From Thalassospira australica (GTDB lineage: Bacteria > Pseudomonadota > Alphaproteobacteria > Rhodospirillales > Thalassospiraceae): DNA of 64,000 nt. The position numbers and the translations under genes were made by a program. The stretch spans positions 2,559,689 to 2,623,688 of the forward strand of contig NZ_CP085258.1 of assembly GCF_044790785.1 (NCBI RefSeq), given 5' to 3'. Numbering within the stretch: the stretch's first letter is position 1; each line of letters starts with the position of its first letter. Under the pieces are notes generated by a model, which worked only from the letters and a program-made list of their open reading frames with translations, had not been told where the DNA came from and searched no databases. This document shows, one piece after another, positions 10,729-47,920 of the stretch.

Positions 10729-13700
10729 TGAATACCGATCAGCTGTTTCGCCGCACGCAAACCGCACGCACCCTGCTTGATAAACTTCGTCAGCGCGACA
10801 TTGCGCTAAGCCTGCATGCCAACGGGCACGATCTTTGTTTTGATGCCCCGACCGGTGCGTTTGACGATGCCCTGAAATCCGAAACCCGTGACCTGAAGGC
10901 TGAAATCATCGGCCTGCTGCGCGCACCCTCCGAACCAGACACCAAGGGTTCCAGCGCCGGTCCGATCCTCAAATCCTTCCCGGCCCATCCCGCCATCGAA
11001 GGACAATGGATTGCACGGCGCGACCAGCCGACAAGTGCGAATTACCATATCGTCACGGGCTTTTCCCTTCCCGAAGGAACCGGTTTCAGTGCGGTCCGCG
11101 ATGCCATCGCCACCATTGTCAAGCGCCATGATGCCCTCAGATCGACCTTTGTCGAACAGGATGGGCAACTGATCCAGCGCGTGCATGCCTACATGCCTGT
11201 AAGCGTGCGCAAGATCGAAACCACCCGTGAAATTCGTCATGATCTTTTTGATCTCGCCACCGGTCCTTTGGCCCGGTTTGGCTATGTCGGACATGACGAT
11301 GGACAAGTCCCGCAACTGGCCATGGCAATCGATCATCTGTGCTTTGATGGTCAATCGGTCATGTTGCTGCAAAAAGAGCTTCTTGCCATTCTTGCCGGAA
11401 ATCCCCCCGGAAACATTCCCGACATCGAAAAACTTGTGCGCAACGCGCATTACAATTTGGATCGGGAACGCGGCGAAATCGCTCGGAAATTCTGGTCGTC
11501 ACGAACCGATAAGTTGTTATCTGTCGGACTGCCTGACGATCCGGCAACAGACAGCAATGGCGACGGCAAACGCTTTTTGATCGAACTGACGGGGCAAGAC
11601 GCCGAAGCCGTTGCAAAGCTTGCCAGCCATACCCGCAAAACGACCCAGACCACACTCTGGGCAGCACTCACCATCGCAGTGATCGCACGGCACAAGGAAA
11701 ACGCCACAGCCATCATCGGGCTGCCTTTTGCCGGCCGCAGGGACAGGGAAACCATGCAGTCTATGGGCTGCTTTGTGAATCTCCTGCCTGTCGCGATCAA
11801 ACCCGATATGACAGGCACCCTTGAAAACCTGACCAGACAGGTCGGGCACGAGGTCCTGTCCATACTCGATGTTCAGGATTACCCCCTGTCGCGTCTGGTT
11901 CACGATCTGACACAGGCGGCACAGGGCCCGATAGGCCAGCCATTCGATGCCGTTCATGTAATGGAAACCTCCGACAGCCCGTTCGTGATCGAAGATCTCG
12001 ACTTCGGCGCGGGTAAATTCCCCCTGATGATCGGCATGATGAAAAACGGCGCGGAAACATTTTTGGCTGTCGAATATCAAAGTAACATCTATGGCAACGC
12101 ATGGGCTGAACGCTTTGCAAAACGTTTCCTGACCTTTGCACGTGCGCTTGCCAAAAACCCGGACATGCCGCTTGGCCTTGTTGATCTGCTGCCCGAAGAC
12201 GAACGCGACCACCTGTCCATCACGCTGAACGATACTGCATCGGATTACCCGCACGACTGCGGTCTTGGTGAATTACTCGCCCGGCAAATCGCCAAGCCAG
12301 CCAATGCGGACAAGGTCGCCCTGCAAGATCGTGATCGAAAAATCACTTATCGCATGTTGGGCCAACGGGTTGCCGCCATTTCTGCCGGGCTTGATGCTCT
12401 TGATGTTGCGCCCGGTTCGATTGTTGCTCTGGCCGCCGATCGTTCTCTTGATGCGATTATCACCCTTCTGGGCATTGCATGGCATGGGGCGGCCTATCTG
12501 CCGATTGATAAATCGCTGCCCGGCGATGCTATTGCCACCCTGATGGCCGAATGCGGTGCCGGTATTTTGCTGTGTGACGACGCCGAATTTGAACGCCTGT
12601 CGGGCCTGTCTGGTCGCGTTCGTATTGCCCGTCTTCCCGACACCAACGCAACATCCGATGCGACCTTTACCAGACGATCCGGCGATGATCTGGCTTATGT
12701 CATGTTTACCTCCGGCTCCACCGGCGCCCCCAAGGGGGTGCTGATCCCCAACCGGGCAGTGGCACGTCTGGTTGTCAATAACCGGGCGCTTGCGTTTGAT
12801 GACACCGATGTCATGGCACAGGCCGCATCGCTTGGCTTTGATGCCGCAACCCTTGAAATCTGGGCCCCGCTTCTGAATGGTGGCAGACTGGTTCTGATCG
12901 ATAACGAAACCCTGTTTGATCCAGAATCCCTTCACAATGCCCTTAAAGATGGCGGTGTCACCACCATGTGGCTGACCGCAAGCCTGTTTAACCGGATCGC
13001 CGATGATGCCCCGGGTTGCTTTGCCCCGCTCAAAAGACTGCTTTCCGGGGGCGAGGTGCTCAGTCCAGCTCACCTGCAAAAAGTCATGGCCGCCTGCCCG
13101 GACCTGGCCCTGATCAACGGCTACGGCCCGACGGAAAATACGACCTTTACCTGTATCCACCCGATCACGGCTCAAGACGTCCAATCGGCAAACATCCCGA
13201 TTGGACGACCGATTGGCAATACCCGCACCTATATTCTTGATACCGGCGGTCAACCGGTTCCAACCGGGGTCTGGGGCGAACTTTACGCCGCAGGCGACGG
13301 GCTGGCACTGGGATATTCCGGCGCGCCCGAACGCACCGCCAAGGCATTCGTCACGTTCGATCATTTGCCCGAAACGCGCCTTTACAAAACCGGCGACCGT
13401 GCGCGCTGGCGGGCGGATGGTGTAATTGAATTTGGCGGCCGCGGTGACGGGCAGGTCAAAATTCGCGGGCACCGGATTGAAACCGCCGCCATTGAAAAAC
13501 GCCTTGCCGAAATCGATGGCATTCGCAATGCCTGCGTGATTGCCGCCGACTCTGGTGCCGATGCCTTCCTTGGGGCGGCCATCGCCGCCGATCAGGATAA
13601 CAGCACCATCTGGATGCAGGTCCTTGGCCGCAATCTGCCCGATTACATGATCCCCGAACGGTTTCTCGTGCTTGATCATCTGCCAGTCAATGTGAATGGC

Positions 13701-16700
13701 AAGGTGGATCGAAAACAGCTTCTTCATGCCCTGACAGATACGGCACCACTTGTCCCCCAAACCGGCAACGCTGCGACCGGCAACGAACTGGAACAGATCG
13801 TTACCGAACAATTCAGGGCCCTGTTTGGCAACCGGGACATCACCCCGTCATCGGATTTCTTTGCACTGGGCGGGCACAGCCTTGTCGCCATGCGCCTTGC
13901 CGGATTGCTCGAAAAATCCACCGGCATTCGCCCGAAACTTCAGGATATCTTTGTTGCCCGGACAGTCGGCGGGATAGCAACCCTTCTTGCCAACCATAAA
14001 CAGAATGGCAAACAATTCCGGATCCCCAAGGCAGACGGCCCGAAATTCCCGCTTTCAAGCGGACAGGCCCGCCTTTGGGTTTTGCAACGCATGCAGCCCG
14101 ACATGGCGGTCTATTCCGTCCCCGCCGCGTTTGAAATCAATGGTCCGATTGATGCCGATGCCTTGCAGGCCGCCCTGCACAAACTTGAAGAACGGCAACA
14201 TGCGCTGCGCCTGCGCTTCAAATCTGATCCGCATCATCCCGATGGCGTCAGCCAGTATCTGGCACCCGCCGGTTCATGGGTTCTTGGCCGCCATCAAATG
14301 GACGAAGGCCCCGCCCGCCTGTTCATCGCACGCGAAACCGTTCGTCCGTTCGATCTTGAAAACAAACCATTGGCACGGGCCGATCTGATCACGCTCGCCC
14401 CCAAACGTCACTGGATGCTGGTTTCCCTGCATCATGCGATTTGCGATGGCTGGTCGATGCCGACATTGCTGCGCGATCTTGCCGCCCTTTATGCCGCCGA
14501 AACCGGTGCAACCGCTGCTTCCTTGCCGTTACTCGACCGGCATTACGAGGATTTTGCAAGCTGGCAACATGGTTATTTAAACTCGACCGGGGGCAAGGAT
14601 TTGCTGGCCCGCTGGAAAGAACGGCTGTTGCCCCTGCCCGAACCACTGGCCCTGCCATCGGACCGACGCCGACCCAAAGTCCGTCGTTTTGCCGGTGATT
14701 TCAACGAAATTGCCTTTGGCGAACAAACCACGCGTCTGATCAACGATGCGGCGGATCGGCATGGCACAACCGCCTTTTCCATTCTGACCGCTTTGGTGCA
14801 AATCCTGATGTACCGCCAATGCGGGCAGACCGATATCCCGCTTGGCATGCTGGTGGCCGGCCGTGAACAGACCGCCCTTGATGATGTGGTCGGCTTCTTT
14901 GTCAACACCGTCGTCCTGCGCCAGAATGTTGATCCAAACGCCGGATTTGACGATCATCTGGCCCAAACCGGCAAAACCATCATTGATGCCCTGTCCGATC
15001 AGGCCGCCCCGTTCGAGGATGTGGTCGCCGCAGTCAATGCGCCGCGCGATCCCGCCCGCAATCCGCTGTTTGATGTTCTGGTCGCCTGGCAGGACAGCAT
15101 ACCTAACCTTGGAAAACTCGGCGATGCCGAACTCTCGCTGCTGAAAACCGAATTCCCGTTCTCGAAATTCGATCTTGCGTTCTATTTCAGCAAACAGAAC
15201 GACGCCCTGCTGTGTCAGATCGAATTTGATACCGACCTGTTTGACAAATCCACCATTCAGGCAATTTTCAACCGGCTTGAAATCCTTGCAGTTGCGGCCC
15301 TGTCCACGTCATCAAGCGCCAAAATCGCCGAATTACCTATTTTGCCCGCGAACGAGCGCACCCGGATCGATCAATTCAATGCCACCGATCTTGACCTTGT
15401 CATTGAACGCAGCATTTCCGAACCGTTTATCGATCAGGTCCGTGCCACGCCAGACGCACCGGCGGTTATCGGAACATCTGCAACGCTAAGCTACGAACAA
15501 TTCGCCCGTCGTGCTGCCGGGATTGCCGCAAAACTGCGCGCGGCATCGGTCGGACCGGGCGATGTCATCGGCGTTGCCGTGCGTCGTTCGGTCGATATGC
15601 TGGCCGCGATTCACGGGATTCTTCTATGCGGTGCGGCATATAGCCCCCTTGACCCCGACCATCCCGAACAGCGCCGTACGGACATGCTTGATGATCTCGG
15701 CTATCCGCGCGTCGTCACCACCGCCGATCTGGCCGACCTGTTTGATGCCAACAATGTCCTGATCATCGATGGCCACGAAGATGCCGATATCCCTGATGCA
15801 ATCAACGCACCCGATGACCTTGCCTATGTGCTGTTCACATCCGGCTCGACCGGTCGCCCAAAGGGTGTCGAAATCGCCCATCGGGGTGTGTTGAACCGCA
15901 TCCTCTGGATGCAGGACGCCTTCCCGATTGGCCCCGATGACGTGATTTTGCAAAAAACCCCGATCACATTCGATGTGTCGGTCTGGGAACTGTTCTGGTG
16001 GTCATGGACGGGCGCACGCATTGTTCTGCCTGATCCGGGTGTTGAACGCGATCCGCAACAACTTGCCCAGGCCATTCGCGATCATGGCGTCACCACCATG
16101 CATTTCGTGCCTTCGATGCTGGCAAGTTTCCTGTTTTCGGTCGAACACGGGCTGGTCGATATCGAACATCTTGGCAGCCTCAAACGCGTTTTCGCCAGTG
16201 GCGAGGCGCTCGACCCGGCACTGGTAAAACGCTTCAACGATCTGCTATTTGATCGCTTCGGAACCGAACTGCATAACCTTTACGGCCCGACCGAGGCGAC
16301 GGTGGATGTCACATGGCATGCCTGCTCGCCACTTGAAAACCCCGATATCGTGCCGATTGGCAAACCAATTGCCAACACCACCATTCGCATCCTTGATGAC
16401 AAACTTGGCGACATGCCGATTGGCATTGCGGGTGAAATCGTGCTGGGCGGGCCACAGATCGCTCTTGGGTATCGCAACCGCCCGGAACTAACCACCGAAA
16501 AGTTCCCCGACGATCCCCGCAATCCGGGTCATAAACTGTATCGCACCGGTGATCTTGGTCGCTTCCTTGCCGACGGATCGGTCGAATATCTCGGTCGGAT
16601 TGATCATCAGGTCAAAATTCGCGGCTTCCGCATCGAATGCGGCGAAGTCGAAACCACGATTGAAAGCCACGATCTGGTCGAACGCGCATTGGTCAAGGCG

Positions 16701-19700
16701 GTCCGGGTTGGCGGTCTTGATGAATTGCATGCCTTTGTGCTGGGCGATGATGCACTCACCCTTGGCATTCTGCGCGATCATCTGCGCACGCGCCTGCCCG
16801 AATACATGATCCCGGCACGTTTCTTTGCACTTGATCATCTTCCCCTCACCAGCAGCGGCAAGGTCGACCGAAAGGCCCTTTCGGGCACACCAATGGCCGG
16901 TTCGCCCAAAACCGCCAGCCGAAGATCAAAACCGGCTATCGCCGCAAGATCCGACGCCGATAATCCCGATCTGGAAAATCTGGAACGGGTTCTGCAACGG
17001 CTGTGGCAGGAAATCCTGCCTGGTGTGATCGCGGGTCGTGACGACGGCTTCTTTGATGTCGGCGGCAATTCGCTTTTGCTGCTGCGTCTGCATGAAAAAA
17101 TCAATGCCCGCTGGCCCGGCACGATCAGCATTGCCGATCTGTTCGCAAGCCCCACCATCGCCCGCCAGGCCGAACTTCTGGCCGGACTGGATATCGCAAC
17201 CGACGATCCTGAACCGGCAAAGGGTGCGCCGCTTGCCACTAACGAACCGATTGCGGTGATCGGTATCGGCCTGCAACTTGCCGGGGCGGATGATATCGAT
17301 ACATTCTGGGCCGACGTCGCCCGTGGGGCGGATCGCGTCCGTCCGCTTCCGCCCGAACGCGACCACGAAACCCGCGACATGATGGCCGCCATTGGCCGTT
17401 CGGTTCCCGCGCGCTTCCGCGAAGCGGCCTATCTTGACCACATCTTTGATTTCGATCCGGGTCGTTTCCGCATGGCCCCGGCGGATGCCGCCCTGATTGA
17501 CCCGGAACAACGGTTGTTTATCGAAACCGCCCTGATGGCGATGGAAAATGCCGGTTATGGCGGGCAGGCCCTGCGTGGCCAGAAAGTCGGCATTTTTGCC
17601 GGTGGCGGGGCAAACCCGGCATGGCGCATTGCGATGGAGCATGTCGCACGCGACAAGGCCGAACAGATTTTTGCCCTTAACGTGCCGTCAAACATGGTCA
17701 CACGCCTGTCCTTCCTCAAGGACTGGCGCGGTCCGGCAAGTATCGTCGATACCGCCTGCTCGTCATCCTTGGTCGCGGTTCATCAGGCCTGCCAGAATTT
17801 GCGCAGCGGCACATGCACCGTCGCCCTTGCCGGCGGCGCGAAACTGATCCCCTGCCCGCCCGATGCCGATGGCGGCTTCACGATTGATTCTTCCACCGCC
17901 CGTACCCGCGCCTTTGACGATGCCGCTGATGGCACCGGCATGGGCGAAGGCAGCGTTGTCTTTGTCCTCAAACCGCTTGGTAATGCCATCGCCGATGGTG
18001 ATCCCGTTCATGCCATTATCCGCGGCAGTGCCGTCAATCAGGACGGCGCCTCAAGCGGGGCGGCCGCCCCCAACCCGGCCATGCAGGCCGATGTGATCCG
18101 GCAGGCCGCGCAAACGGCGGATATCGAACTGGGCTCCCTTTCCTATATCGAAGCCCACGGCACCGGCACGTCGCTTGGCGATCCGATTGAAATCGATGGC
18201 CTGACCCGCGCCTTCGCCCAAAGCACGGATGAAAATGGCTTTGCCCTGATCGGCTCGGCCAAGGGGAATTACGGCCATCTTGATGGGGCGGCGGGGGCAC
18301 TTGGTCTTGCACGCGCCATCATGGCATTACGCTTTGATCAGGCCCCGCCGCAACCCTTCTTTGAAACCCCCAACAGCCGGATTGATTTCGCGCGTGCGCC
18401 AGTACGCCCGACCAACCGCCTTGAACCGTTGGCGGACCGTGGCGCACCAAGACGTGCCGGTGTCAGTTCCTTCGGGCTAAGCGGCATCAACGCCCACGTC
18501 ATCCTTGAAGCCGCCCCAAAACGCAGCGCAAATGCACCGTATGATATCGCGCAAAACGGGACCTTCATCCTTGCGCTGTCTGCTGCCAACGAGGCCGCAT
18601 TAACCGACTATGCCGCCAAACTGCATCGCGACATCGCCAATGACACCACCCTTGATGTCCGGGACATCTGCCACACACTTGCTACCGGGCGCGACCAGCT
18701 CCGGCATCGCTTCGCCGTTTCGGTATCGGATCGCCAAAGCCTTCTGCACGCCCTTGCCGGTTTGATCGCCGGTGACACGGCAAATTGCGCCGCGCCCAAA
18801 CCTGCCGCGTTCTCTGTCCCGGCGGTTTCAGGTGATCCCGCCGATGCCACGGCCAATGCGCGCCAATGGCTCGAAGGGGCCAATCTGATCTGGCCCGAAG
18901 ATATGCGCGCACGCCGCGTATCCCTTCCCCATGCACCTTTTGCGAAAATCGTCTGCAAACCGGTCTTTGGCGACACCCGGGCACCCGATAACACGATCAT
19001 GACCGGCCCGGTCGAAACCGAAAGGGGCCGCTGCTTTGCCATTCCGGTCGCCTCCCCGTCCTTCTGGCCGACGAATGAACATCACCTGAACGGTCAACCG
19101 ACACTGGTCGGCATGGCCGTTCCCGCCATGATCGCAACTGCGGCCCGAAACGGCATGGGCGATCCGTCGGTACATATTTCTGACCTAAAATGGCAAAAGA
19201 CCCTTCTGCCCAATGCCCTGCCCGATGGCACGGCAACGCTTTTGCTTGGAAATGACGGTCATGTCGAACTGGGTGGCCGCCTTAAAAACGGCAAATGGTC
19301 GGTCTTTGCCACCGCGCACTGGACGAATGATGCACCGGCAAACAGCCACCGCGACAATTTGCCGTCGCTTGACCATGTGCGCGCAAAATGTACGCTTGCG
19401 GCCAATATCCCCCCTTATGCCCCTCAGATCGGCCCGATCACGATCAGCGACCGCTGGGATTGCCGGACGTCCATGCATTACAGCGCGGACGAAACCACGG
19501 CGATCATGCATCTGAAACTGAAACCGCAATATCATGCCGACCTGCGCGACTGGATCATTCATCCGGCCATGGCCGATATTGCATGCAGCATGATTCTGAC
19601 GGCCGAGGATAATGGCTCTCTCCCCGTCGGCATTGACGAAATCATACTGCACGCGCCGTTTAGCGGCGATATCATTGTCTGTGCCGACCGTCGTCATCCG

Positions 19701-22700
19701 GGGCAGGCCGACTTCACCTTCTTTGATGCCGACAGCCACAAACTGCTCCTGACCATACGCGGCATTCGTTTCTCGGGGGATAGTAACGGCAAAGCAGAAT
19801 CCGCCATGCCGGAACTGCTCGAAATTGACTGGCTGCCGGGCACGGTTGAAATGCAACCGGTTCCCGAAAACACCCTGATGATTGTCGATGGCGATTTCTG
19901 GCCGGTCCCGCCTGCCTGCCTGCGTATCCATCCCGATGCCCTTGCCACCACCGGCAAGGATATGCTGGCAACGGCGCAAAACGTCATTCTGGCCTTGGAA
20001 CCGGGCGAAGACATCGCCCTTCGCACCGCCCGATGCCTACGTTCTATCCTGCGCACCATGCGCGGGCGGATGCGGTTTGTCGTTGCCGGATGCGGCGCCT
20101 ATCAGATCAATGGCGATACCATTCCCACCAACCCGGATCAAAGTGCAGCAGCCGGTGTTGCCATCGCCGCAAGCGCCGAAGAACCCCGCCTGGTCCTCTC
20201 CTTTGCCGATATCGCACCGGATGATTTCCTTGCTTATATCGGTACTGAGCTGGCAACCGAACCGGGCCACGATCCGGTTGCGGCTTATCGCAATCAGGTC
20301 CGCTATTGTCGCAAACTCCGCCCGGTTTCCGCGCATGACAATCTGGCAAAAACCAACTGGCCCGATCATGGCGTCTGTGTCGTAACTGGCGGTACCGGCG
20401 GCTTTGCCATGGCCCTTGCCGATGAAATGGCGATGGGCGGCAAAGTGGCTCTTGCCCTGCTTGCCCGTCGCGGTGAAGACGGCCTTGATGCAACAACAAG
20501 GACACAGCTTGCACACCTTCGCGCAACCGGCATCAAGGTATCAATCCACACCTGCGACGTTGCCGACAAAGACGCGCTTTCCGATACGCTTGCCACGATC
20601 CGAAATAGTCTCGGCCCGATCACGGCCATTGCCCATGCCGCCGGGCTTGCCGATGGCGGGTTCCTTGCCGTCCGCGACATGGATGCGTTCGACACCATCA
20701 TGGCCGCCAAGATCAACGGCGCCCGTCATCTTGACACCCTGACCCTTAACGACCCCGTGCAGGCCTTTGTCATGTTCGGCAGCCTGACGGCCATCGTCGG
20801 TGTGCCCGGTCAGGCCGCCTATAGTGCGGCCAACGCCTTCCTTGACGGTTTTGCCCGTTACCGCAGGTCGCAGGGCCGCCCGGCCCTGACCATCGACTGG
20901 TGCGCTCTTGCCGATCAGGGCATGGCCGCACGTCACAATGTTCCGCTTCAGGACGGGGCCGCCATTACCCCGCAACAGGCCCCGGTCTTCTGGCGCGACG
21001 CGATGCACAGCACGGCCGCACAGCTTGTCGTGCTTGATCCCGCCCTTGCTGGTGAAACAGCGGCACAACCGGTAAAACCCGTTTCCGCACCGGCATCTGC
21101 ATCTCCATCGACACCGGATATCCCGCAAAAGATCGCCACCATCTGGGCTGAAACACTCGGCTATGATGCCATCGCCCCGGATGATGATTTCTTTGCCCTT
21201 GGCGGGGATTCCATCACCGGCATGCAGATCGTGGATCGCATGAATGCCGAACTGAAATTGTCGCTGGCGATTTCGGACCTGTTTGCCGCACCGACGGTAT
21301 CCGACCTTGCAGCACAATTCGGCCCATCACCGGCGGGCGATGTCAACCTGCCGGAACCATCCAGGTATCATGAGGCGATATCGACGGGCCCGGTCAATCC
21401 CACGGATAAAATCGCAAAAATCTGGGCCGAAATCCTTGGCTATGACAACATCGACCCGGACGAGGATTTCTATGCCCTTGGCGGCGATTCCATAACCGGC
21501 ATGCAGATCGTGGATCGCATGAATGCCGAACTGGCCTGCAATATCGGTCTTGCCGACCTGTTTGAAACCCCGACGATCACGGCACTGGCCACAAAGATAT
21601 CGCCATCAGTTGAAACTGTGAAACCATCGCCCGTTTCCCTGTCTCCGGCACCAAAACCGGCACAGCCCAAGGTCAAGCTCGAGGTTGAGGTTGAAACCGA
21701 TCCGCGCCGCGCGCCGGAAATGGAATTCTATCCGCTGGCCCCCGAACAGGTTTCGGTTCTGCATGCCGAACAAAGCGGCAATCTGGGCACCGCCTTTAAC
21801 CTGCCCCATGCCTTCATGCTTGACGACAGTGTCGATCTTGATCGCTTGCGTGATGCCATCATCCGCCTGACGGAACGTCATGAAATCCTGCGCACCCGCT
21901 TGATCGCCAAGGGTGATGACTGGGTCATGAAAATTCTGCCACTTCATGACGCCCTGCCCGATCTGACGCTGATCGAACTTGATGCTTCCGTATCGCTTGA
22001 AGATGCCGGTGTGTACCTTGTCATGCCGTTCGATCTGGCAACGGAAATTCCCGCGCGCTGGCGTCTGCTATGTGCTGCCGACGGCCAAAAGGCATTGTTC
22101 TTTGATATCCATCATACGGTTTCCGATGGCTTTACCATTGAAATGCTGCTGTCGGAATTGCTGGCGATTTATCGTGGGCAGCCCCTGCCACCCGTCCCCT
22201 ATCAGTTGCGCGATTACGCCTGGTGGAGCCATCTACCCGAAAGCCGCAAGCGGCTTGAAACCGCGCGTGATTACTGGCTCTCCCTGTATCAGGGACCACT
22301 TCCGAGGCTCGACCTGCCATCGGATCGCAAACGTCCGGCTTTCCATAGCTTCACAGGGGAAATCGTCGCGTTTGATCTTGATCCGGCGGTGCTGAAATCG
22401 GCCCGCAAATTCGCATCCGATCAACGTGTGACCATGTTCTCGCTGATGATGGCAACATGGTTTGCCGTCCTTGGCCGGATCGCCGCCACCGACGATCTGG
22501 TCATCAGCGTCCCGGTCAACCAGCGCGATGGTGCTGGCTTCCGCGATGCGCCGGGCATGATGGTTTCACTTCTGCCACTCCGCATGCAGATTGCCGATGA
22601 TGAAACCTTTGCATCTCTTCTGCACAAGGTGCAAAACCATCATATTGATGCCCTCCGCCACCGGGCCTATTTCCTGGATCTTCTACTGGATGATCTCTCA

Positions 22701-25700
22701 CCACCGGCCGAACCCGAACGCACCCTGCTGTCCGAAGTTTCTCTATCCTATATGAACTATGCACAGGGCGATTACGGACCGGACGAACAAGCCAAATCCA
22801 TGCGCCCCATTGGGCTTGGCCGGCAGCAATGCAAAAACGATCTGGCGATCTTTGTGCGCGACCTTCCCGAAAGAATGGTCATCTCGTTCGACTATTATGT
22901 CGATATGTTTGATCGCGCCCGCATGGTCGAACTCGGTCACATCTTTACGACAACCCTGAAAAAACTGGTTGCCACGGACGCCAACGCAAACACCGCACCG
23001 ATTGCCTCCCTGGATCTTCTGCCCGATGATCAGAAAGCAAATATCGAAATCTGGGAACAGGGTCCGCAACCGGAAACCAGCCTTGATGCGGATGCGAATG
23101 CCGGGATCTTTGCGATATTCGCCAATCAGGCCTCCGTCACCCCCGATGCCCCTGCCATCCGCGATACCAATGGCACATGGACCTTTGGGGAACTGCATGC
23201 CAAGGCGCGCGCCATTGCCAATTGCCTGCAAACCGCCGGGATCGAACCGGGCGATCTGGTTGCAATGCATATTGAACGTGGTCGTCCGGCCATTGCCGCA
23301 ATTCTCGCGATTACCGCCATCGGCGCGGGATATGTCCCGCTTGATCCGGCCTATCCGGTGGCACGCAATCAATTCATCCTTGCCGACAGCGGGGCCAAAC
23401 TGGTTCTGGTTGATAACGCCGGGCATGACGCCCTTGGCTCCCTGTCCGAAACCGGCGATCCATCCCCGCAACGGATCAATATTGTGGGCATTGCCCCGGC
23501 ACCAGCCGATTTCACCCTTCCCGAACTGACCAACCCGGACAGTTTTCCTGCCTATATCATGTATACCTCCGGCTCGACCGGAACGCCCAAGGGGGTTCTG
23601 ATCGAACAGGGTGCAGTACGCCGGCTGGCATTGGGCGCGGATTACGCCAAAATCGTTGCCTCTGATGTGGTGGCACAGGCAGGCCCACTGGCATTTGATG
23701 CCTCGACCTTTGAAATATGGGCGACCTTGCTGCGTGGTGCGGAAATCGCCGTGATTGACCGCGATGACCTGCTTGATCCGGCCAAACTCGGCGATGCCCT
23801 GTCGCAATCGGGTGTTACGAAAATGTTCATGAGCGTCGGCCTGTTCAACCGTCAGGTCGATCATGATCCCCGCACCCTTGCCGGGCTTGATATCCTGATG
23901 GTCGGCGGGGACGCGATCAGCAAACAGCATGTCCGCACCTTTATCGCCGCCTGCCCGCACGTCACGGTTCTGAACGGTTATGGCCCGACCGAAAGCACGA
24001 CCTTTGCCGTTGTCGGCCCGATCACCGAAAATGATCTGTCGGGCGATACCGATGCCACCATCATCGGCAAACCCATCCCCTGTACCAAAACGCTGATCCT
24101 TGATCAGAACGGTCAACGCACCCCGGTTGGCGTCTGGGGCGAATTGATGATTGGCGGGTCACGTCTGGCGCGCGAATACTGGCAACGTCCCGACCTGACC
24201 TGCGAACGGTTCATCCCCGATCCCGATCAGCCCGGCGAACGGCTCTATCGCACCGGCGACCTGACCCGATGGACCCGCGAGGGCCGAATCGAATTTGGCG
24301 GCCGTCATGACAATCAGATCAAACTGCGCGGTTTCCGTATTGAACTGGATGAAATCGAACAACAGCTTCAATCCACACCCGACATCAAAAATGCGGTTGC
24401 CCTGTTTGACTCGATCGCCCCTGATGGTGGGGCGATCATCGGCTGTATTCAGACGACACAGAATCAGGATATCGATTTCCCTGCCCTGATGACGTGGCTT
24501 GGCCAACATCTGCCCGGCTACATGATCCCGGCGAAATGGCATATCGTCGATGCCATCCCGATCACCGCCAATGGCAAGGTCGACCGAAAGGCCCTGCTCG
24601 AAACGGTGCGCACGCAATCGAGCGCGCTGGCCCTTGACGGCAACACCGATACCCCGCCCGCCAACGCCGCCGAAAAACTGGTTGCCGATATCTTTACCGA
24701 GGTTTTCGCAACCCCCATCCGTAACCGGCACGCAAGCTTCACCCAGCTTGGCGGTCACAGTCTGATGGCAATCCGGATCGTAAACCGCATTGCGGATCGG
24801 ACCGGCAAACGCATCAGCATGGCCGACTTCTTTGCCGATCCGACGGTCGCGGGGCTTGCCCGCCATATCGACAATGCCACCATTGATATCGCCGCAACCG
24901 GCAATGGCCAAATCCCGCCCGCACCGGAAATGGAACATTACCCGGCCAGCCACGCGCAAAAACGGCTTTATCTGCTCTCAAAGATGGACGGCAACAGCGG
25001 TGCCTATGGGATGCTTTATGTCTTCCGCTGCACCGGTGATTTGCGTGCCGATATCCTGCAATCCGCCCTGACCCGGCTGGTCGACCGTCATGAAACATTG
25101 CGCACGGGCTTTGCCGAACAGGACGGCACGATCACGCAGAAAATCCATGCCACCACCCCGCCCGCCGTCGCGTTTGACGATCTTTCCGGTCATGCCGATC
25201 CGGCCCGCGAAGCCCTTCGTCTGACCCGGCTTGAGGCGGCAACACCGATCATCCTCGATCAGCCGCCGCTGATCCGCGGGCGCGTCATCCGGGTGGCGGC
25301 CAATGAAAGCCTGATGATCCTGATGACCCATCATATCGTCGGCGATGGCTGGTCTTCGCGCATCCTGATCAACGAACTTGGCGCGCTTTATGATGCCGTC
25401 CTTCATCAGCGGAACGATGCCCTGCCGCAACTTCCGATCACATACAAGGATTTCGCCCATTGGCAATCCCGACAGGATTGGGCCGATGCTGCCGATTACT
25501 GGCGTCAACAGCTTGCCAATGCCCCGGAACAGATCAATCTGCCAACGGATCGCCCTGTACCGGAAAAACAATCCTTCCGCGGCGCGCATGTGCATCTTGC
25601 CCTGCCTGATGACGTCCTGTCCGGCCTGCACCAGCTCGCCAGCCGGAACAAAACAACCCTGTCATCGGTTGGCCTGTCGCTGTTTTCCGCCATGCTCTAT

Positions 25701-26252
25701 CGCCTGACGCGCCAACCTGACATGGTTATCGGCATGGGCGTTGCCGGGCGTGAACGTATCGAGACCGAGGGCCTGATCGGCTTCTTTGTCAATGTCCTGC
25801 CGATCCGCATGCAGCTTGACGACGACACCGATCTTGGCGACCTGATCCGTACCACCCATATCAATATTGGCAATGCGCTGGACCGGCAGGATTTCCCGTT
25901 TGATGAACTGGTCCGGGCCGTCGCACCAAAACGCAAATCCAACCGTCAGCCGCTGGTTAATGTGGTGTTCGAATATCAACGCTTCGAAGCCGTAACCAAT
26001 ATGACGCAATCCGGTCTGCCGCTGCTGGCTCCCGATGCCGACGGCATCCTGCCATCCAATATGGATGCCTTTGTCGATAACACGACGGCCAAACATGACA
26101 TCATTCTGTTCCTGACCGAAGAAGCCGGTCAGGCACGCTTCACCCTTGAATATGACACCGATCTGTTCGATGCGGAAACCATGCAGCGCTGGTTGGCCTT
26201 CCTTGGCAAATTTGCCGCTGCCGCCGCACAAAATGCCCAAAGGGATGCATAA
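10728..26252 (+). CDS. hybrid NRPS-PKS, modules 3-7: docking-C-A-T-C-A-T-KS-DH(like)-KR-ACP-ACP-C-A-T-C
   Basis: 5174 aa. TubC-N-like docking N-terminus (LLDKLRQRDIALSLHANGHDLCFDAP). C domains IDHLCFDGQS (~11331; first His replaced by Asp), HHAICDGWS (~14431), HHTVSDGFT (~22111), HHIVGDGWS (~25330). Three A domains with TSGSTG(A/R/T)PKGV cores (~12710, ~15838, ~23565). PCPs LGGHSL / VGGNSL / LGGHSL. KS DTACSSSL (~17750), EAHGTGTSLGDP, GNYGHLDGAAG, followed by a KS-AT-type linker but no AT (no GHSxG). DH-like region with degenerate HxxxGxxxxP (HHLNGQPTLVGMAVP). KR GGTGGFAMA plus YSAANAFLD. Two tandem carrier domains DDDFFALGGDSITGMQIVDRMNAEL. Ends in a C domain. ATG at 10728 with GGGAG SD; stop overlaps the gene 3 ATG. 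Confidence 0.9.
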   Translation: MNTDQLFRRTQTARTLLDKLRQRDIALSLHANGHDLCFDAPTGAFDDALKSETRDLKAEIIGLLRAPSEPDTKGSSAGPILKSFPAHPAIEGQWIARRDQPTSANYHIVTGFSLPEGTGFSAVRDAIATIVKRHDALRSTFVEQDGQLIQRVHAYMPVSVRKIETTREIRHDLFDLATGPLARFGYVGHDDGQVPQLAMAIDHLCFDGQSVMLLQKELLAILAGNPPGNIPDIEKLVRNAHYNLDRERGEIARKFWSSRTDKLLSVGLPDDPATDSNGDGKRFLIELTGQDAEAVAKLASHTRKTTQTTLWAALTIAVIARHKENATAIIGLPFAGRRDRETMQSMGCFVNLLPVAIKPDMTGTLENLTRQVGHEVLSILDVQDYPLSRLVHDLTQAAQGPIGQPFDAVHVMETSDSPFVIEDLDFGAGKFPLMIGMMKNGAETFLAVEYQSNIYGNAWAERFAKRFLTFARALAKNPDMPLGLVDLLPEDERDHLSITLNDTASDYPHDCGLGELLARQIAKPANADKVALQDRDRKITYRMLGQRVAAISAGLDALDVAPGSIVALAADRSLDAIITLLGIAWHGAAYLPIDKSLPGDAIATLMAECGAGILLCDDAEFERLSGLSGRVRIARLPDTNATSDATFTRRSGDDLAYVMFTSGSTGAPKGVLIPNRAVARLVVNNRALAFDDTDVMAQAASLGFDAATLEIWAPLLNGGRLVLIDNETLFDPESLHNALKDGGVTTMWLTASLFNRIADDAPGCFAPLKRLLSGGEVLSPAHLQKVMAACPDLALINGYGPTENTTFTCIHPITAQDVQSANIPIGRPIGNTRTYILDTGGQPVPTGVWGELYAAGDGLALGYSGAPERTAKAFVTFDHLPETRLYKTGDRARWRADGVIEFGGRGDGQVKIRGHRIETAAIEKRLAEIDGIRNACVIAADSGADAFLGAAIAADQDNSTIWMQVLGRNLPDYMIPERFLVLDHLPVNVNGKVDRKQLLHALTDTAPLVPQTGNAATGNELEQIVTEQFRALFGNRDITPSSDFFALGGHSLVAMRLAGLLEKSTGIRPKLQDIFVARTVGGIATLLANHKQNGKQFRIPKADGPKFPLSSGQARLWVLQRMQPDMAVYSVPAAFEINGPIDADALQAALHKLEERQHALRLRFKSDPHHPDGVSQYLAPAGSWVLGRHQMDEGPARLFIARETVRPFDLENKPLARADLITLAPKRHWMLVSLHHAICDGWSMPTLLRDLAALYAAETGATAASLPLLDRHYEDFASWQHGYLNSTGGKDLLARWKERLLPLPEPLALPSDRRRPKVRRFAGDFNEIAFGEQTTRLINDAADRHGTTAFSILTALVQILMYRQCGQTDIPLGMLVAGREQTALDDVVGFFVNTVVLRQNVDPNAGFDDHLAQTGKTIIDALSDQAAPFEDVVAAVNAPRDPARNPLFDVLVAWQDSIPNLGKLGDAELSLLKTEFPFSKFDLAFYFSKQNDALLCQIEFDTDLFDKSTIQAIFNRLEILAVAALSTSSSAKIAELPILPANERTRIDQFNATDLDLVIERSISEPFIDQVRATPDAPAVIGTSATLSYEQFARRAAGIAAKLRAASVGPGDVIGVAVRRSVDMLAAIHGILLCGAAYSPLDPDHPEQRRTDMLDDLGYPRVVTTADLADLFDANNVLIIDGHEDADIPDAINAPDDLAYVLFTSGSTGRPKGVEIAHRGVLNRILWMQDAFPIGPDDVILQKTPITFDVSVWELFWWSWTGARIVLPDPGVERDPQQLAQAIRDHGVTTMHFVPSMLASFLFSVEHGLVDIEHLGSLKRVFASGEALDPALVKRFNDLLFDRFGTELHNLYGPTEATVDVTWHACSPLENPDIVPIGKPIANTTIRILDDKLGDMPIGIAGEIVLGGPQIALGYRNRPELTTEKFPDDPRNPGHKLYRTGDLGRFLADGSVEYLGRIDHQVKIRGFRIECGEVETTIESHDLVERALVKAVRVGGLDELHAFVLGDDALTLGILRDHLRTRLPEYMIPARFFALDHLPLTSSGKVDRKALSGTPMAGSPKTASRRSKPAIAARSDADNPDLENLERVLQRLWQEILPGVIAGRDDGFFDVGGNSLLLLRLHEKINARWPGTISIADLFASPTIARQAELLAGLDIATDDPEPAKGAPLATNEPIAVIGIGLQLAGADDIDTFWADVARGADRVRPLPPERDHETRDMMAAIGRSVPARFREAAYLDHIFDFDPGRFRMAPADAALIDPEQRLFIETALMAMENAGYGGQALRGQKVGIFAGGGANPAWRIAMEHVARDKAEQIFALNVPSNMVTRLSFLKDWRGPASIVDTACSSSLVAVHQACQNLRSGTCTVALAGGAKLIPCPPDADGGFTIDSSTARTRAFDDAADGTGMGEGSVVFVLKPLGNAIADGDPVHAIIRGSAVNQDGASSGAAAPNPAMQADVIRQAAQTADIELGSLSYIEAHGTGTSLGDPIEIDGLTRAFAQSTDENGFALIGSAKGNYGHLDGAAGALGLARAIMALRFDQAPPQPFFETPNSRIDFARAPVRPTNRLEPLADRGAPRRAGVSSFGLSGINAHVILEAAPKRSANAPYDIAQNGTFILALSAANEAALTDYAAKLHRDIANDTTLDVRDICHTLATGRDQLRHRFAVSVSDRQSLLHALAGLIAGDTANCAAPKPAAFSVPAVSGDPADATANARQWLEGANLIWPEDMRARRVSLPHAPFAKIVCKPVFGDTRAPDNTIMTGPVETERGRCFAIPVASPSFWPTNEHHLNGQPTLVGMAVPAMIATAARNGMGDPSVHISDLKWQKTLLPNALPDGTATLLLGNDGHVELGGRLKNGKWSVFATAHWTNDAPANSHRDNLPSLDHVRAKCTLAANIPPYAPQIGPITISDRWDCRTSMHYSADETTAIMHLKLKPQYHADLRDWIIHPAMADIACSMILTAEDNGSLPVGIDEIILHAPFSGDIIVCADRRHPGQADFTFFDADSHKLLLTIRGIRFSGDSNGKAESAMPELLEIDWLPGTVEMQPVPENTLMIVDGDFWPVPPACLRIHPDALATTGKDMLATAQNVILALEPGEDIALRTARCLRSILRTMRGRMRFVVAGCGAYQINGDTIPTNPDQSAAAGVAIAASAEEPRLVLSFADIAPDDFLAYIGTELATEPGHDPVAAYRNQVRYCRKLRPVSAHDNLAKTNWPDHGVCVVTGGTGGFAMALADEMAMGGKVALALLARRGEDGLDATTRTQLAHLRATGIKVSIHTCDVADKDALSDTLATIRNSLGPITAIAHAAGLADGGFLAVRDMDAFDTIMAAKINGARHLDTLTLNDPVQAFVMFGSLTAIVGVPGQAAYSAANAFLDGFARYRRSQGRPALTIDWCALADQGMAARHNVPLQDGAAITPQQAPVFWRDAMHSTAAQLVVLDPALAGETAAQPVKPVSAPASASPSTPDIPQKIATIWAETLGYDAIAPDDDFFALGGDSITGMQIVDRMNAELKLSLAISDLFAAPTVSDLAAQFGPSPAGDVNLPEPSRYHEAISTGPVNPTDKIAKIWAEILGYDNIDPDEDFYALGGDSITGMQIVDRMNAELACNIGLADLFETPTITALATKISPSVETVKPSPVSLSPAPKPAQPKVKLEVEVETDPRRAPEMEFYPLAPEQVSVLHAEQSGNLGTAFNLPHAFMLDDSVDLDRLRDAIIRLTERHEILRTRLIAKGDDWVMKILPLHDALPDLTLIELDASVSLEDAGVYLVMPFDLATEIPARWRLLCAADGQKALFFDIHHTVSDGFTIEMLLSELLAIYRGQPLPPVPYQLRDYAWWSHLPESRKRLETARDYWLSLYQGPLPRLDLPSDRKRPAFHSFTGEIVAFDLDPAVLKSARKFASDQRVTMFSLMMATWFAVLGRIAATDDLVISVPVNQRDGAGFRDAPGMMVSLLPLRMQIADDETFASLLHKVQNHHIDALRHRAYFLDLLLDDLSPPAEPERTLLSEVSLSYMNYAQGDYGPDEQAKSMRPIGLGRQQCKNDLAIFVRDLPERMVISFDYYVDMFDRARMVELGHIFTTTLKKLVATDANANTAPIASLDLLPDDQKANIEIWEQGPQPETSLDADANAGIFAIFANQASVTPDAPAIRDTNGTWTFGELHAKARAIANCLQTAGIEPGDLVAMHIERGRPAIAAILAITAIGAGYVPLDPAYPVARNQFILADSGAKLVLVDNAGHDALGSLSETGDPSPQRINIVGIAPAPADFTLPELTNPDSFPAYIMYTSGSTGTPKGVLIEQGAVRRLALGADYAKIVASDVVAQAGPLAFDASTFEIWATLLRGAEIAVIDRDDLLDPAKLGDALSQSGVTKMFMSVGLFNRQVDHDPRTLAGLDILMVGGDAISKQHVRTFIAACPHVTVLNGYGPTESTTFAVVGPITENDLSGDTDATIIGKPIPCTKTLILDQNGQRTPVGVWGELMIGGSRLAREYWQRPDLTCERFIPDPDQPGERLYRTGDLTRWTREGRIEFGGRHDNQIKLRGFRIELDEIEQQLQSTPDIKNAVALFDSIAPDGGAIIGCIQTTQNQDIDFPALMTWLGQHLPGYMIPAKWHIVDAIPITANGKVDRKALLETVRTQSSALALDGNTDTPPANAAEKLVADIFTEVFATPIRNRHASFTQLGGHSLMAIRIVNRIADRTGKRISMADFFADPTVAGLARHIDNATIDIAATGNGQIPPAPEMEHYPASHAQKRLYLLSKMDGNSGAYGMLYVFRCTGDLRADILQSALTRLVDRHETLRTGFAEQDGTITQKIHATTPPAVAFDDLSGHADPAREALRLTRLEAATPIILDQPPLIRGRVIRVAANESLMILMTHHIVGDGWSSRILINELGALYDAVLHQRNDALPQLPITYKDFAHWQSRQDWADAADYWRQQLANAPEQINLPTDRPVPEKQSFRGAHVHLALPDDVLSGLHQLASRNKTTLSSVGLSLFSAMLYRLTRQPDMVIGMGVAGRERIETEGLIGFFVNVLPIRMQLDDDTDLGDLIRTTHINIGNALDRQDFPFDELVRAVAPKRKSNRQPLVNVVFEYQRFEAVTNMTQSGLPLLAPDADGILPSNMDAFVDNTTAKHDIILFLTEEAGQARFTLEYDTDLFDAETMQRWLAFLGKFAAAAAQNAQRDA
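21195..21533 (+). repeat. intragenic tandem duplication encoding two near-identical carrier (ACP/PCP) domains
   Basis: A 60-nt block gcccttggcgg(g/c)gattccat(c/a)accggcatgcagatcgtggatcgcatgaatgccgaactg occurs at 21195-21254 and again at 21474-21533 (2 mismatches, 279 nt apart). The flanks are about 80 percent identical. Confidence 0.85.
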
Positions 26253-29200
26253 TGAAAATCGCCGATTTCGATTTTGAAACTCTCGACACACCACCCGGGG
26301 CAGACAACCAACCCGATTCCCGACCATCGGCAACAACCGGCAGCATCGTGACCCGGTTTGCAACGATTGCCGCGTCGCATCCCAATCGCATTGCAACCCG
26401 CGATGAAACCGGCGAAATCAGCTATGCCGAACTGGACCGCCAAAGCAATCGTATCGCGCATTTCATTACCGGGCTTGCCCTGCCCGCCGGATCGCTTGTC
26501 GGCGTGATGACCGGGCGCAACCGCCATTACATCACCGCAACCCTTGGCGTCCTTAAGGCCGGTTTTGCCTTTGTGCCGCTTGATCCGAATGTACCGCTGA
26601 TCCGCCGCACCACACTGGTCCGCAATGCAGCACTACCGCTGATCATTTCCGAAGGCCCCCATATCGGCGACCTGCACCAGTTGCAGTGGCGCTGCAAAAC
26701 CGTCACCGACATTCTGTGTCTTGACCATGACGATATTGATATCCTGACGGAAAATCCCGGTTCCCTGATGTCGGTTGAACTGTGGGATCATCTGGCCGGC
26801 GATGATGCCGACAACATTCTGGCGGGTGGCTGGAAAAGTGCCTTTACCGGGCAGCCGATTGCGCAAAGTGCGATGGATGCCTTTGGCGCAAATGCGCGCA
26901 ACAAGGTCGCCGGTCTGGTATCACGCGATGCCCGCGTACTTGAAATCGGCTGCGCATCCGGTTTCACCATGAAGCATGTCGCCCCCGTCGTCAGCACCTA
27001 TGTCGCGACCGATCTGTCGCGTCGCAACGTCGAACGGACCGAGGCCCTGGCGATCAATCTTGGCATGACCCATGTTATCGGTCGGCAGCTTGGCGCGCAT
27101 GATATCGATGTTTATGAACCGGGCTCGTTCGACCTGATCATCATGAACAGCGTCATCGAAAACTTCCCCGGCTACGGTTATCTGCGCACGGTCCTGGCAA
27201 AGGCAAAAACCCTGTTGGCACCGGGTGGAGCGATTTATCTTGGCAATGTCTGGGATGCGGATCGTCGCGATGATTACCTTGCCGATCTGGCGCAGTTTGC
27301 CCGTGACACGGTGGGCAAGGGATACAATACCCGACTTGATTTCCTCGAAGACCTGTTTGTCCCCCAGTGCTTCCTTGAAGACTGGGCACGCGAACAGGGC
27401 GGCTTTGCCGCCAACCGATCCGCAATCGATGCCGACGGGTTCGATCCCGCCCCCTACACATTCGATTTCGTCCTGACAACGGATGCTGCCAAACAGCCTG
27501 CCCCGCCGCAAAAGCGCCGCCACGATCTGGCCGCACTGACCAACGATGCGCACACCGCAACCGAAACCAATGCAAACGATCTTGCCTATGTCCTGTTCAC
27601 CAGCGGTACCACCGGCACGCCAAAGGGGGTGATGATCGAACATGGCTCGGTTGTAAATCTGGCCCAGTCGGTTCTCGATACGCAGTTAAAACAGATCGGT
27701 GCCGATGCTCCCGACCGCGCCCTTAACCTGACCTGTGTCGCGCCCTTTGCCTTTGACGGCTCCATCGTTCAGATTTTCGCGGCCATCCTGAACGGGCATT
27801 GCCTGAACATCACCGGATCGGCCACGCGAAGCGACCCGGAAGCCCTGCATCACCTGATGGTCGCCAACGCAATTGATCAGCTTGACGCAACGCCAAGCCT
27901 GTTTTCCCTGCTCCTTGACTACTGGGAAGAAAACCGGCTTTCCTGCCCGGCTAGGATGGTGGTTCTGGGCGGTGAAACGGTTTCCGCCCGACTGGTCGAA
28001 CGTTTCTTTGCCCTGCCCGGCCAGACCGACCGCAAACTGGTCAATGCCTATGGCCCGACGGAATGCTGCGTTTCATCGGCCCAGTATGTGATGACCGCGC
28101 ACAACCATAAACAGATTCTGCCGCCCCCAATTGGCAAGGCCATTCAGGGCGTGCATGTGGAAATCTGCGATGATATGGGCCGCCCCTTGCCCGATGGTGT
28201 TCCGGGCGAAATCCGCATCGGCGGTGCCGGTGTCGCGCGCGGCTATCTGAACGACCCGGCCCTGACCGCGCACAAATTTGTCACCGATCACAACGGCAAC
28301 CGGTTCTATCGCAGCGGCGATATGGGCCGGCGGCGCAATGATGGCGAAATCGTTTTTCTTGGGCGCGAAGACGGCCAGATCAAGGTGCGCGGCAACCGGA
28401 TCGAACTGGGCGAAGTCGAACATGCCCTGCTTGCCCATCCCCATATCCGCCGTGCCGCCGTGGTCGCCCATGACCGTCATCAGAACGGCAATGTTGTTCT
28501 GGTCGGTTATGTCGTGACCGATGACAATGCCCATGCCGATTTCGATATCGCGGCGTGTAGGGCAAAACTTGAACAGGCCCTGCCGAACTATATGGTGCCC
28601 AACCATCTGATCACGATGGATGACCTTCCGCTGACCGTGAATGGCAAAATCGATCTTTCACGCCTTCCCATCCCCGAAAACACCGATCAGGCCACAAGCA
28701 CCACCGCAAAGCCGCTTGGCAGCGACCATGAACGCACCGTTGCCCGCCTGATGGGCGAGGTCCTTGATTGCACCGTCGATGACGCCACCGCCGATTTCTT
28801 TGAACTCGGCGGTCACAGCGTCCTTGCGGTTCAGTTCCTGTCAAAAATCAACAAGGTTACCGACGTCAAAATCCCGCTGGGCGATCTGTTTACCTGTGCC
28901 TCGGTCGAAAAGCTCGCCGCGCGCATTTCCGAACGCGAAAACGAAAGCGACGCCAAAAGCCCGATTGTCACCGTCAATGCAGCGGGTACCAAACCACCGA
29001 TGATCTGCTTCCATCCGGTCGGCGGCAATGTGCTGTGCTATCAAAACCTTGCCCGTGAATTCGGCCCCGATCAGCCGCTTTACATGGTCGAAGCCCAAGG
29101 CCTCGAAGAAGGCCAGAATTTGCAGCCAACGGTCGAGGAAATGGTGGCCGCATACATGCCTGCCATCCGCCACACCGTTCCCGACGGCCCGATCCATGTC

Positions 29201-30541: not shown

Positions 30542-30641
30542 CCGGGTGGCCTTCTGTGCGTCATCAAAAACAGATAAAAAAAGAATGCCCAAAGCACGCT
30601 TTGGGCATTCTCGAAATACGGTCTGAAAACCCGATGATCAA

Positions 30642-40787: not shown

Positions 40788-40826
40788 ATTCTTTCGACGC
40801 GAAAAAGGCTTTCGGTTATGCCCCCA

Positions 40827-40847
40827 ACTGGACAGCGACTGGACAGC
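40827..40847. promoter_or_regulatory. tandem direct repeat (ACTGGACAGC x2, 11-bp register) upstream of ABC exporter operon; candidate operator
   Basis: actggacagc at 40827-40836 and again at 40838-40847, about 65 bp upstream of ATG 40912. A TACAAT -10-like hexamer lies downstream (~40871). Confidence 0.3.
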
Positions 40848-40911
40848 CCTGCCGGGCACCGGTACAGTCGCGTACAATGACCACATCGGGTTCTATGGGG
40901 ACTGCAAACAA

Positions 40912-42561: not shown

Positions 42562-42563
42562 TC

Positions 42564-44237: not shown

Positions 44238-44241
44238 TCCG

Positions 44242-44982: not shown

Positions 44983-45040
44983 GTTTCTTTCCGTCCCCAA
45001 TTGCCGACTGCTTTACCTGTCGCAATATTATCGCGCAATT

Positions 45041-47680: not shown

Positions 47681-47918
47681 AGCCTTCATTATCGAGACAC
47701 TTAATCTCGAAGACATAAGTGTCGAGGATATCGACAGCGAAGAAGCCCTGTTTGTCGACGGGCTGGGCCTTGATTCCATTGATGCCCTTGAACTTGGCGT
47801 TGCAATCCAGAAAAAATATGATGTCCGGATCGATGCCAAAAACGAAGATGTCAAAACCCATTTTGCATCGGTGCGCAATCTGGCGACATTCATTCAGGCT
47901 TCGGGAAAGGAGGGGTAA
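47655..47918 (+). CDS. acyl carrier protein 1
   Basis: 87 aa, DGLGLDSIDALEL (DSL-type phosphopantetheine site). Confidence 0.7.
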   Translation: MTSLETELKAFIIETLNLEDISVEDIDSEEALFVDGLGLDSIDALELGVAIQKKYDVRIDAKNEDVKTHFASVRNLATFIQASGKEG

Positions 47919-47920
47919 TC

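Follow-up and report, generated by a model that had tools for sequence, protein, structure and literature searches.

A ketosynthase module without an acyltransferase that is very probably module 4 of a thalassospiramide synthetase

Does a polyketide synthase (PKS) module that lacks its own acyltransferase (AT), carries an unusual dehydratase (DH) and ends in two carrier domains represent a new mixed cis/trans-AT system or a known assembly line, and which AT loads it? The question is raised by a 64-kb stretch of DNA (the window, to which all nucleotide positions refer), wherein an earlier note singled out positions 17240-21540 as a ketosynthase (KS) module without an AT, embedded in an otherwise cis-AT line and equipped with a degenerate DH and tandem carriers. 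The stretch is very probably module 4 of the hybrid non-ribosomal peptide synthetase (NRPS)-PKS that makes the thalassospiramides, lipopeptides of the marine genus Thalassospira, within an orthologue of TtcB from a Thalassospira strain that is related to, and distinct from, strain CNJ-328. The AT-less module, the unusual DH and the doubled carriers are real; they are also already published and probed by mutagenesis, and are not new.

The module belongs to three co-directional, translationally coupled genes on the + strand that together encode a hybrid NRPS-PKS. According to Pfam, gene 1 (4306-10728) has the domain string C-A-T-KS-AT-T (C, condensation; A, adenylation; T, carrier), gene 2 (10728-26252, 5174 aa) reads TubC-type dock-C-A-T-C-A-T-KS-linker-(weak DH)-KR-T-T-C-A-T-C (KR, ketoreductase), and gene 3 (26252-29767, 1171 aa) reads A(MT)-T-TE (MT, methyltransferase; TE, thioesterase). 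With residue numbering taken into account, gene 1 is the ttcA orthologue, in which a starter C-A-T (module 1a) precedes KS-AT-T (module 1b). Gene 2, on domains, numbering and size, is the ttcB orthologue and comprises dock-C-A-T (module 2), C-A-T (module 3, for Ser, with FDVSVWE in its A3 domain), KS-DH-KR-T-T (module 4), C-A-T (module 5) and a final C. Gene 3, on domains and size, is the ttcC orthologue, its A domain interrupted by the MT and followed by T and TE (module 6). An Sfp-type phosphopantetheinyl transferase (PPTase) gene on the minus strand (29780-30592; Pfam ACPS and 4PPT_N) stands next, in the position of ttcD. The three-gene order C-A-T-KS-AT-T / C-A-T-C-A-T-KS-DH-KR-T-T-C-A-T-C / (MT)A-T-TE followed by a PPTase matches the description of the Ttc line.

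The thalassospiramide synthetase was described by Zhang, Tang, Huan, Ross and Moore (bioRxiv 10.1101/560987), whose published version appeared in Nat Chem Biol in 2020 according to its citation in PMC12081711. The gene order aldehyde dehydrogenase-LysR-A-B-C-PPTase-DUF697-Band7 and the sizes agree with Supplementary Information (SI) Table 2 of that work. The aldehyde dehydrogenase (1411-2910, minus strand, 499 aa), which is ttc -2 there, a methylmalonate-semialdehyde dehydrogenase, and the LysR-family regulator (3057-3944, + strand, 295 aa; Pfam HTH_1 and LysR_substrate), which is ttc -1, are exactly equal in size to their published counterparts; gene 2 compares with 5186 aa for TtcB, and gene 3 with 1174 aa for TtcC. 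Further, residues mutated in the paper coincide with the expected motif residues at the window numbering (TtcA H154, G631 and K972), and K2045 of TtcB, the site of the K2045A mutant, is the A10 lysine at the same number in gene 2; one-residue offsets are found for TtcA S1728, which is S1729 in the window, and for TtcC G234, which is G233 there. The primers and CRISPR spacers of the paper map to the expected sites with two to three mismatches, and its 283-bp check amplicon for the AT of module 1b (AT1b) maps to 9372-9654 with the same length. Against TtcB-DH4 as given in SI Fig. 6, the DH region shows 83% identity. Because gene order, sizes, residue numbering, primer sites and DH identity all agree, the window is read as the ttc locus of a related strain.

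Relatives of the locus point the same way. The thalassospiramide (ttc) cluster is expected in the genera Thalassospira, Tistrella and Oceanibaculum. In a scan of one genome per species, 13 of the 14 related loci lay in Thalassospira genomes. Nine full-length Thalassospira orthologues share 53.5-87% identity over the module, with strain MCCC 1A03138 at the top (87%), and the best tblastn segments against Thalassospira loci range from about 54 to 93% identity. The module resembles TtcB module 4 of Thalassospira sp. CNJ-328 in genus, gene order, domain order, residue numbering and near-identical sizes, as well as in the missing AT, the unusual DH motif, the tandem T domains and the PPTase directly downstream. 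It differs in coming from another strain, as reflected in the DH identity, the primer mismatches and the spacing of the carriers discussed below. The CNJ-328 module is reportedly also treated by Ross et al. (2013, JACS) and Zhang W. et al. (2016, JBC). What counts against this assignment is that the window strain is not the one studied in print, so that its thalassospiramide output is predicted only; an exact-sequence look-up of the gene 3 product returned no record.

The absence of an AT from module 4 is clear-cut. KS4 (17244-18353, + strand) has strong Pfam matches to the N- and C-terminal ketoacyl-synthase families (E 2e-54 and 6e-35), and every KS motif listed by the earlier note is present, namely DTACSSSL at aa 2341, HGTGT at aa 2477 and GNYGH at about aa 2513 of gene 2, leaving the Cys-His-His triad intact (C2344, H2477 and the His of GNYGH). 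The KS is followed by a flanking subdomain (18369-18947, + strand) in which KS-AT-type and post-AT-type linkers adjoin with no AT between them, matching KAsynt_C_assoc, RhiE-like_linker and CurL-like_PKS_C. The translation of gene 2 contains no GHSxG motif anywhere and no match to Acyl_transf_1, not even when the KS-to-KR stretch was scanned by itself at E 0.01, so that profile hidden Markov models place no AT between these domains. An alignment of gene 1 with gene 2 spans the KS and the KS-AT linker, ends at aa 1612 of gene 1 and aa 2676 of gene 2, and resumes weakly (E 0.003) where the post-AT linker of gene 1 (aa 1933-2055) meets aa 2689-2815 of gene 2. As the alignment breaks and resumes at these points, about 320 aa of AT are cleanly absent from gene 2, and the AT is likewise lacking in all nine orthologues.

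The flanking subdomain closes without an AT, as it does in solved AT-less KS structures. Solved AT-less chains (6mhk, 4wky, 4z37, 4ope, 5elp and RhiE) align with the KS4 query to about residue 570, across the whole subdomain, whereas the alignments of the cis-AT chains CurL and DEBS end near residues 507-521. However, a phmmer ranking of solved KS chains, with KS4 and KS1b as queries, placed CurL and DEBS among the trans-AT chains with comparable scores, CurL standing second; as the ranking did not separate cis-AT from trans-AT ancestry, no KS-clade assignment was made.

The only AT in sight is AT1b in gene 1 (9202-10011, + strand; Acyl_transf_1 E 3e-46), a malonyl-type domain with GHSIGE at aa 1727 and HAFH at aa 1828, as the earlier note had recognised. 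A tblastn search with this AT against all 64 kb returned its self-match only, and Pfam scans of the other plausible open reading frames (ORFs) of the window found no AT. A free-standing AT gene is thus absent from the 64 kb, as had been claimed, and none lies within 10 kb of the orthologous loci.

Downstream of the DH, KR4 (19815-20927, + strand) has both its structural and its catalytic subdomain (TGGTGG, YSAAN). The judgement that it is intact stands, with YSAANAFLD at aa 3365 and a Pfam KR match over aa 3215-3395 (E 1.4e-48). Pfam reports four PP-binding stretches in the gene 2 fragment aa 2001-5174, and module 4 contains two GGDS carrier motifs, which bear out the reported doubling: Ser 3495 in T4a (21126-21314, + strand; Pfam PP-binding) and Ser 3588 in T4b (21405-21593, + strand; self-alignment). 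The end of the flagged stretch at 21540 therefore clips the second carrier, which reaches to about 21593. Self-alignment shows that T4a and T4b have an identical 20-aa core, ALGGDSITGMQIVDRMNAEL, at 21192-21251 and 21471-21530, 93 residues apart, and the tandem GGDS motifs are kept in nine of nine orthologues. In CNJ-328, recombination between T4a and T4b removed 86 residues (10.1101/560987). Since the repeat here measures 93 aa against the published deletion of 86 residues, the strains differ either in linker length or in the limits that were reported. The same work found that merging T4a and T4b into one chimeric carrier lowered all products equally, which indicates that the doubling raises flux and leaves product identity alone.

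How, then, is module 4 loaded? The authors of 10.1101/560987 call it a trans-AT module, list AT4 among the missing domains and report no stand-alone AT near either ttc or the Tistrella cluster ttm. Both clusters yield thalassospiramide A in P. putida without a cognate AT, which the authors attribute to an AT of host primary metabolism; expression of ttc in E. coli failed (10.1101/560987). An S1728A mutation of AT1b reduced the B-like products, whose assembly requires both PKS modules, to 8-24% in P. putida and did not abolish them, and every thalassospiramide product requires extension by module 4 (10.1101/560987). AT1b is therefore not required for module 4 in P. putida, because the mutant still makes products that all need this module. 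Taken together, production in P. putida, the S1728A products and the AT-less Tistrella Ttm line establish that an AT outside the cluster suffices. A review reached a similar view for the thalassospiramide, didemnin and FK228 lines, which draw on primary-metabolism AT activity, and reported the fatty-acid AT as the sole AT in the Tistrella mobilis genome outside the didemnin cluster (PMC5577590). Further, a 2026 paper suggested FabD loading for barnesin, wherein a KS-DH-KR module makes a vinylogous residue (PMC13096860). One concern is that loading was studied in print by genetics in a heterologous host, so that the AT used in Thalassospira itself is proposed.

Read from the domains and the published model, the steps at module 4 would run as follows. 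KS4 would receive from T3 a peptidyl chain with serine at its end, and an AT outside the module, which the authors take to be the housekeeping malonyl transferase of fatty-acid synthesis, would load malonyl onto T4a/T4b. KS4 would then condense the chain with malonate on T4a or T4b, KR4 would reduce the β-keto group, and DH4 would dehydrate the product, forming the 4-amino-5-hydroxy-pent-2-enoyl unit found in the 12-membered ring. The two carriers would raise flux with the products unchanged.

The main alternative to housekeeping loading is that module 4 is naturally loaded by AT1b, acting across modules of the same line, with the housekeeping AT serving merely as a backup seen in heterologous hosts. 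This is possible, though we hold it to be doubtful. AT1b is malonyl-type; the window has no other AT, and its counterpart is the only one within 10 kb in each orthologous locus. Indeed, each of the ten Thalassospira loci whose sequence extends upstream has exactly one AT, located upstream of module 2. In five lineages (T. mesophila, T. australica, strain HF15 and two metagenome-assembled genomes; loci L004, L005, L007, L008 and L011) ttcA and ttcB are fused. The fused lines, in the first ~1100 aa of the long ORF (e.g. L005:1001-5500), begin C1-T1-[linker-AT-linker]-C2, so that they have lost A1a, KS1b, T1b and the docking domain but keep the AT between T1 and C2. The motifs of this orphan AT are intact (GQGxQ, GHSIGE, the malonate-binding Arg and xAFH with the catalytic His), and its ratio of nonsynonymous to synonymous substitution rates (0.10-0.27) signals purifying selection similar to that on the C1 domain (0.17-0.21). 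Its core is 63-64% identical to the AT of the window, above the about 54-59% of module 4. In the orphan-AT lines, T4a and T4b are the only acyl carrier proteins (ACPs) that follow a KS; an AT under selection without a KS or ACP of its own would therefore most simply serve T4a and T4b. Cross-module action is also documented in the Ttc line for A, MT and possibly KR domains (10.1101/560987).

On the other side, the S1728A mutant remains productive in P. putida, and the Tistrella Ttm line, which lacks any AT, makes thalassospiramide A both natively and in P. putida (10.1101/560987). Some cluster-bearing strains are moreover reported to be non-producers (PMC5577590), and that the orphan-AT lineages produce the compounds is an assumption. 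A comparison of T1b with T4a and T4b showed no special similarity beyond the GGDS motif and is uninformative on which AT serves which carriers. Even so, the retention of an AT without its own module in five lineages suggests that the in-line AT has some bearing on module 4, which counts against a purely external loader. Such a role would be compatible with the published sufficiency of housekeeping AT activity, since the in-line AT may provide a redundant or a native route. The earlier note had left the choice between the gene 1 AT and an unlinked AT: the unlinked route is sufficient on the published evidence (10.1101/560987), and a contribution of the gene 1 AT gains some support from the orthologues. 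The inference from the orphan-AT lineages may be the only part of this analysis that is new.

The fused lines show a separate peculiarity further along, where module 5 after the tandem carriers is reduced to C-T without an A domain (L005:14678-17107, likewise L007 and L011), as in the 'incomplete' Tistrella architecture.

A dedicated free-standing trans-AT other than FabD, encoded elsewhere in the Thalassospira genome, would be a third source of malonyl units. Classical trans-AT systems do use dedicated ATs, and the AT search here covered the 64-kb window of the genome. However, the cloned cluster alone is enough for production in P. putida (10.1101/560987), Tistrella mobilis makes thalassospiramide with only the fatty-acid AT outside its didemnin cluster (PMC5577590), and housekeeping FabD is proposed for the comparable orphan modules of FK228 and barnesin (PMC5577590, PMC13096860), which together make a dedicated enzyme improbable.

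There remains the DH, described in the earlier note as degenerate and possibly inactive on account of a 4-residue insertion in its HxxxGxxxxP motif. There is no such insertion. DH4 (18990-19787, + strand), identified with an orthologue profile, AlphaFold and Foldseek, carries H2785-HLN-G2789-QPTL-V2794-G, with His 2785 at nucleotides 19080-19082, and this motif aligns without gaps to the CurF DH and to canonical DHs, Val 2794 standing where the canonical Pro stands. The catalytic Asp is found in HPAMAD2950 (nucleotides 19575-19577). In a nine-sequence alignment (the window and eight orthologues, 42-91% identity) about 80 positions are invariant, among them alignment positions H53 (aa 2785), G57, P59, V62, P67 and H213-P-A-x-x-D218 (aa 2950). 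The His and the Asp are also present in the TtcB and TtmA sequences printed in the supplement of 10.1101/560987.

Profile and structure comparisons agree that the region is a DH. An orthologue profile matched the CurF DH of the PDB over nearly its full length (E 6e-10), along with CurK, RzxB and MlnD. The AlphaFold model, built on a 27-sequence alignment drawn from exhaustive HMMER matches, has a predicted local distance difference test score (pLDDT) of 88.7 and a predicted template-modelling score of 0.87; a 3-row alignment had given a pLDDT of only 32. Foldseek placed the model with the DH domains of AlnB, CurF, CurK and RzxB (E 1e-17 to 1e-16, template-modelling scores of 0.68-0.80). DH profiles and DH folds were thus both matched, and the suspicion of degeneracy does not hold up. 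An aminotransferase or a methyltransferase between KS and KR, also considered, was ruled out, as Pfam gives only DH matches there and the fold is that of a DH.

The variant is also widespread. A word-indexed homologue search with the DH region returned two fragments only, and HMMER, run exhaustively, recovered 139 cluster representatives at E<=1e-3, of which 35 reached E<=1e-10. The motif EHxLxGxP(T/I/L)(L/M)VGM occurs in about 19 of the 31 representatives inspected, the canonical HxxxGxxxxPG appears in the same register among more distant matches, and GHSxG is missing between KS and DH in all of the 20 top matches whose sequence includes the upstream KS. The motif differences of DH4 are, as far as sequence comparison can tell, the signature of a conserved subfamily found in AT-less KS-DH-KR-T modules of NRPS lines, and not decay.

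More than 20 clusters at 50% identity (P0006 and P0010-P0034) consist of large NRPS-PKS proteins that combine an AT-less KS-DH-KR-T module with an EHxLxGxPTLVGM DH, mostly with a single carrier. In T. alkalitolerans (L009:12005-13276), a low-complexity insert of about 140 aa, rich in Asn, Gly, Thr and Ser, sits in the middle of DH4 between the hotdog halves.

Two observations speak against a functional DH4. The canonical support motifs are replaced, the Pro by Val 2794, the YGP region (GYxYGPxF) by ISDRWDC and the Q/H of DxxxQ/H by Ser 2954. The Pfam scores fall short of the gathering cut-offs, at 18.9-21.7 bits for PS-DH (cut-off 23.7) and 16.8-19.4 for PKS_DH_N (cut-off 27); the relatives P0006, P0015 and P0027 score above the PS-DH cut-off. 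The preprint 10.1101/560987, in which no DH4 point mutant was found, newly annotated DH4 as an unusual dehydratase and as the source of the conserved α,β-unsaturated residue that is present in every thalassospiramide product, and tied the action of DH4 to the last passage through module 4, which yields the α,β-unsaturated unit of the 12-membered ring, the calpain-reactive pharmacophore. That DH4 has decayed and is inactive, the double bond coming from another enzyme or from spontaneous elimination, is highly improbable in spite of these replaced motifs and low scores, given that His 2785 and Asp 2950 are invariant in nine sequences (though so are about 80 other positions), that the variant motif is kept in many unrelated NRPS-PKS proteins, that a confident double-hotdog model matches solved DH domains, that the paper links dehydration to module 4 passage, and that deletion of the non-assembly-line genes ttc -1 and +1 to +4 left production unaffected, the upstream genes -7 to -1 had proved dispensable in an earlier construct and the line works in a foreign host (10.1101/560987). 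We infer instead a conserved atypical DH, which is probably active given the product structure, its conservation and a cloned region that encodes no further dehydratase.

Named systems outside Thalassospira share parts of this arrangement. Module 4 of TtmA in the 'incomplete' line of Tistrella mobilis is likewise an AT-less KS-DH-KR-T-T with the EHxLxGxPTLVGM and HPALxD motifs; the Tistrella line differs from the window in having no AT anywhere and in lacking module 1b, A1 and A5. By description, the lines for barnesin (BrnF), FK228 and didemnin are alike in placing an AT-less KS(-DH)-KR after an NRPS module to make vinylogous or statine-type residues, with no cluster AT and a housekeeping AT invoked (PMC13096860, PMC5577590). 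Unlike these lines, which have no cis-AT module at all, the Thalassospira Ttc line carries one in-line AT. Classical trans-AT PKSs (bacillaene, rhizoxin, oxazolomycin) share with module 4 a KS with an AT-free flanking subdomain and tandem ACPs; in contrast to them, Thalassospira has no dedicated AT gene in or near the cluster, and its single AT-less module sits in a mostly NRPS line.

The rest of the window holds other loci. A long + strand ORF at 1564-2955 was rejected as a gene, having no Pfam match, and the overlapping aldehyde dehydrogenase on the minus strand is the real one. Positions 39705-45000 encode a pyridoxal-phosphate-dependent enzyme, two ABC transporter ATP-binding proteins (one with a weak transmembrane-region match in addition) and a type II thioesterase (44242-45000, minus strand). 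About 10-15 kb separate these genes from ttcC, which lies upstream, and counting genes places them past ttc +6, the last gene of SI Table 2 (10.1101/560987); they are possibly an editing thioesterase and an exporter for the line, or an unrelated locus. Farther on, 46111-62590 (+ strand) is an aryl-polyene or xanthomonadin-like lipid cluster without an AT gene. It comprises Ketoacyl-synt_2, an acyltransferase, a fusion of AMP-ligase and ApeI-like dehydratase and a fusion of glycosyltransferase and lipid-A-type acyltransferase, as well as an aromatic ammonia lyase, a halogenase-like flavoprotein, DUF3261, two KS genes, an ApeP-like dehydratase, a FabG-like reductase and a LolA-like protein.

Above all, this check guards against describing the region as a new mixed cis/trans-AT system or a module with a dead DH. 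The DH variant itself, with Val for Pro, Ser for Q/H and no YGP, is easily missed by standard DH models, which is relevant to the annotation of vinylogous-amino-acid warheads. The in-line AT may, though we would not bet on it, be the line's own internal loader of module 4, beyond its part as the cis-AT of the often-skipped module 1b. If this were true, the housekeeping AT at work in P. putida would be a redundant route, and Thalassospira would offer a case of a cis-encoded AT domain that naturally serves a distant module of the same megasynthase. Regardless, the orphan AT kept in several Thalassospira lineages offers a concrete way to test which AT supplies module 4 in the native hosts.

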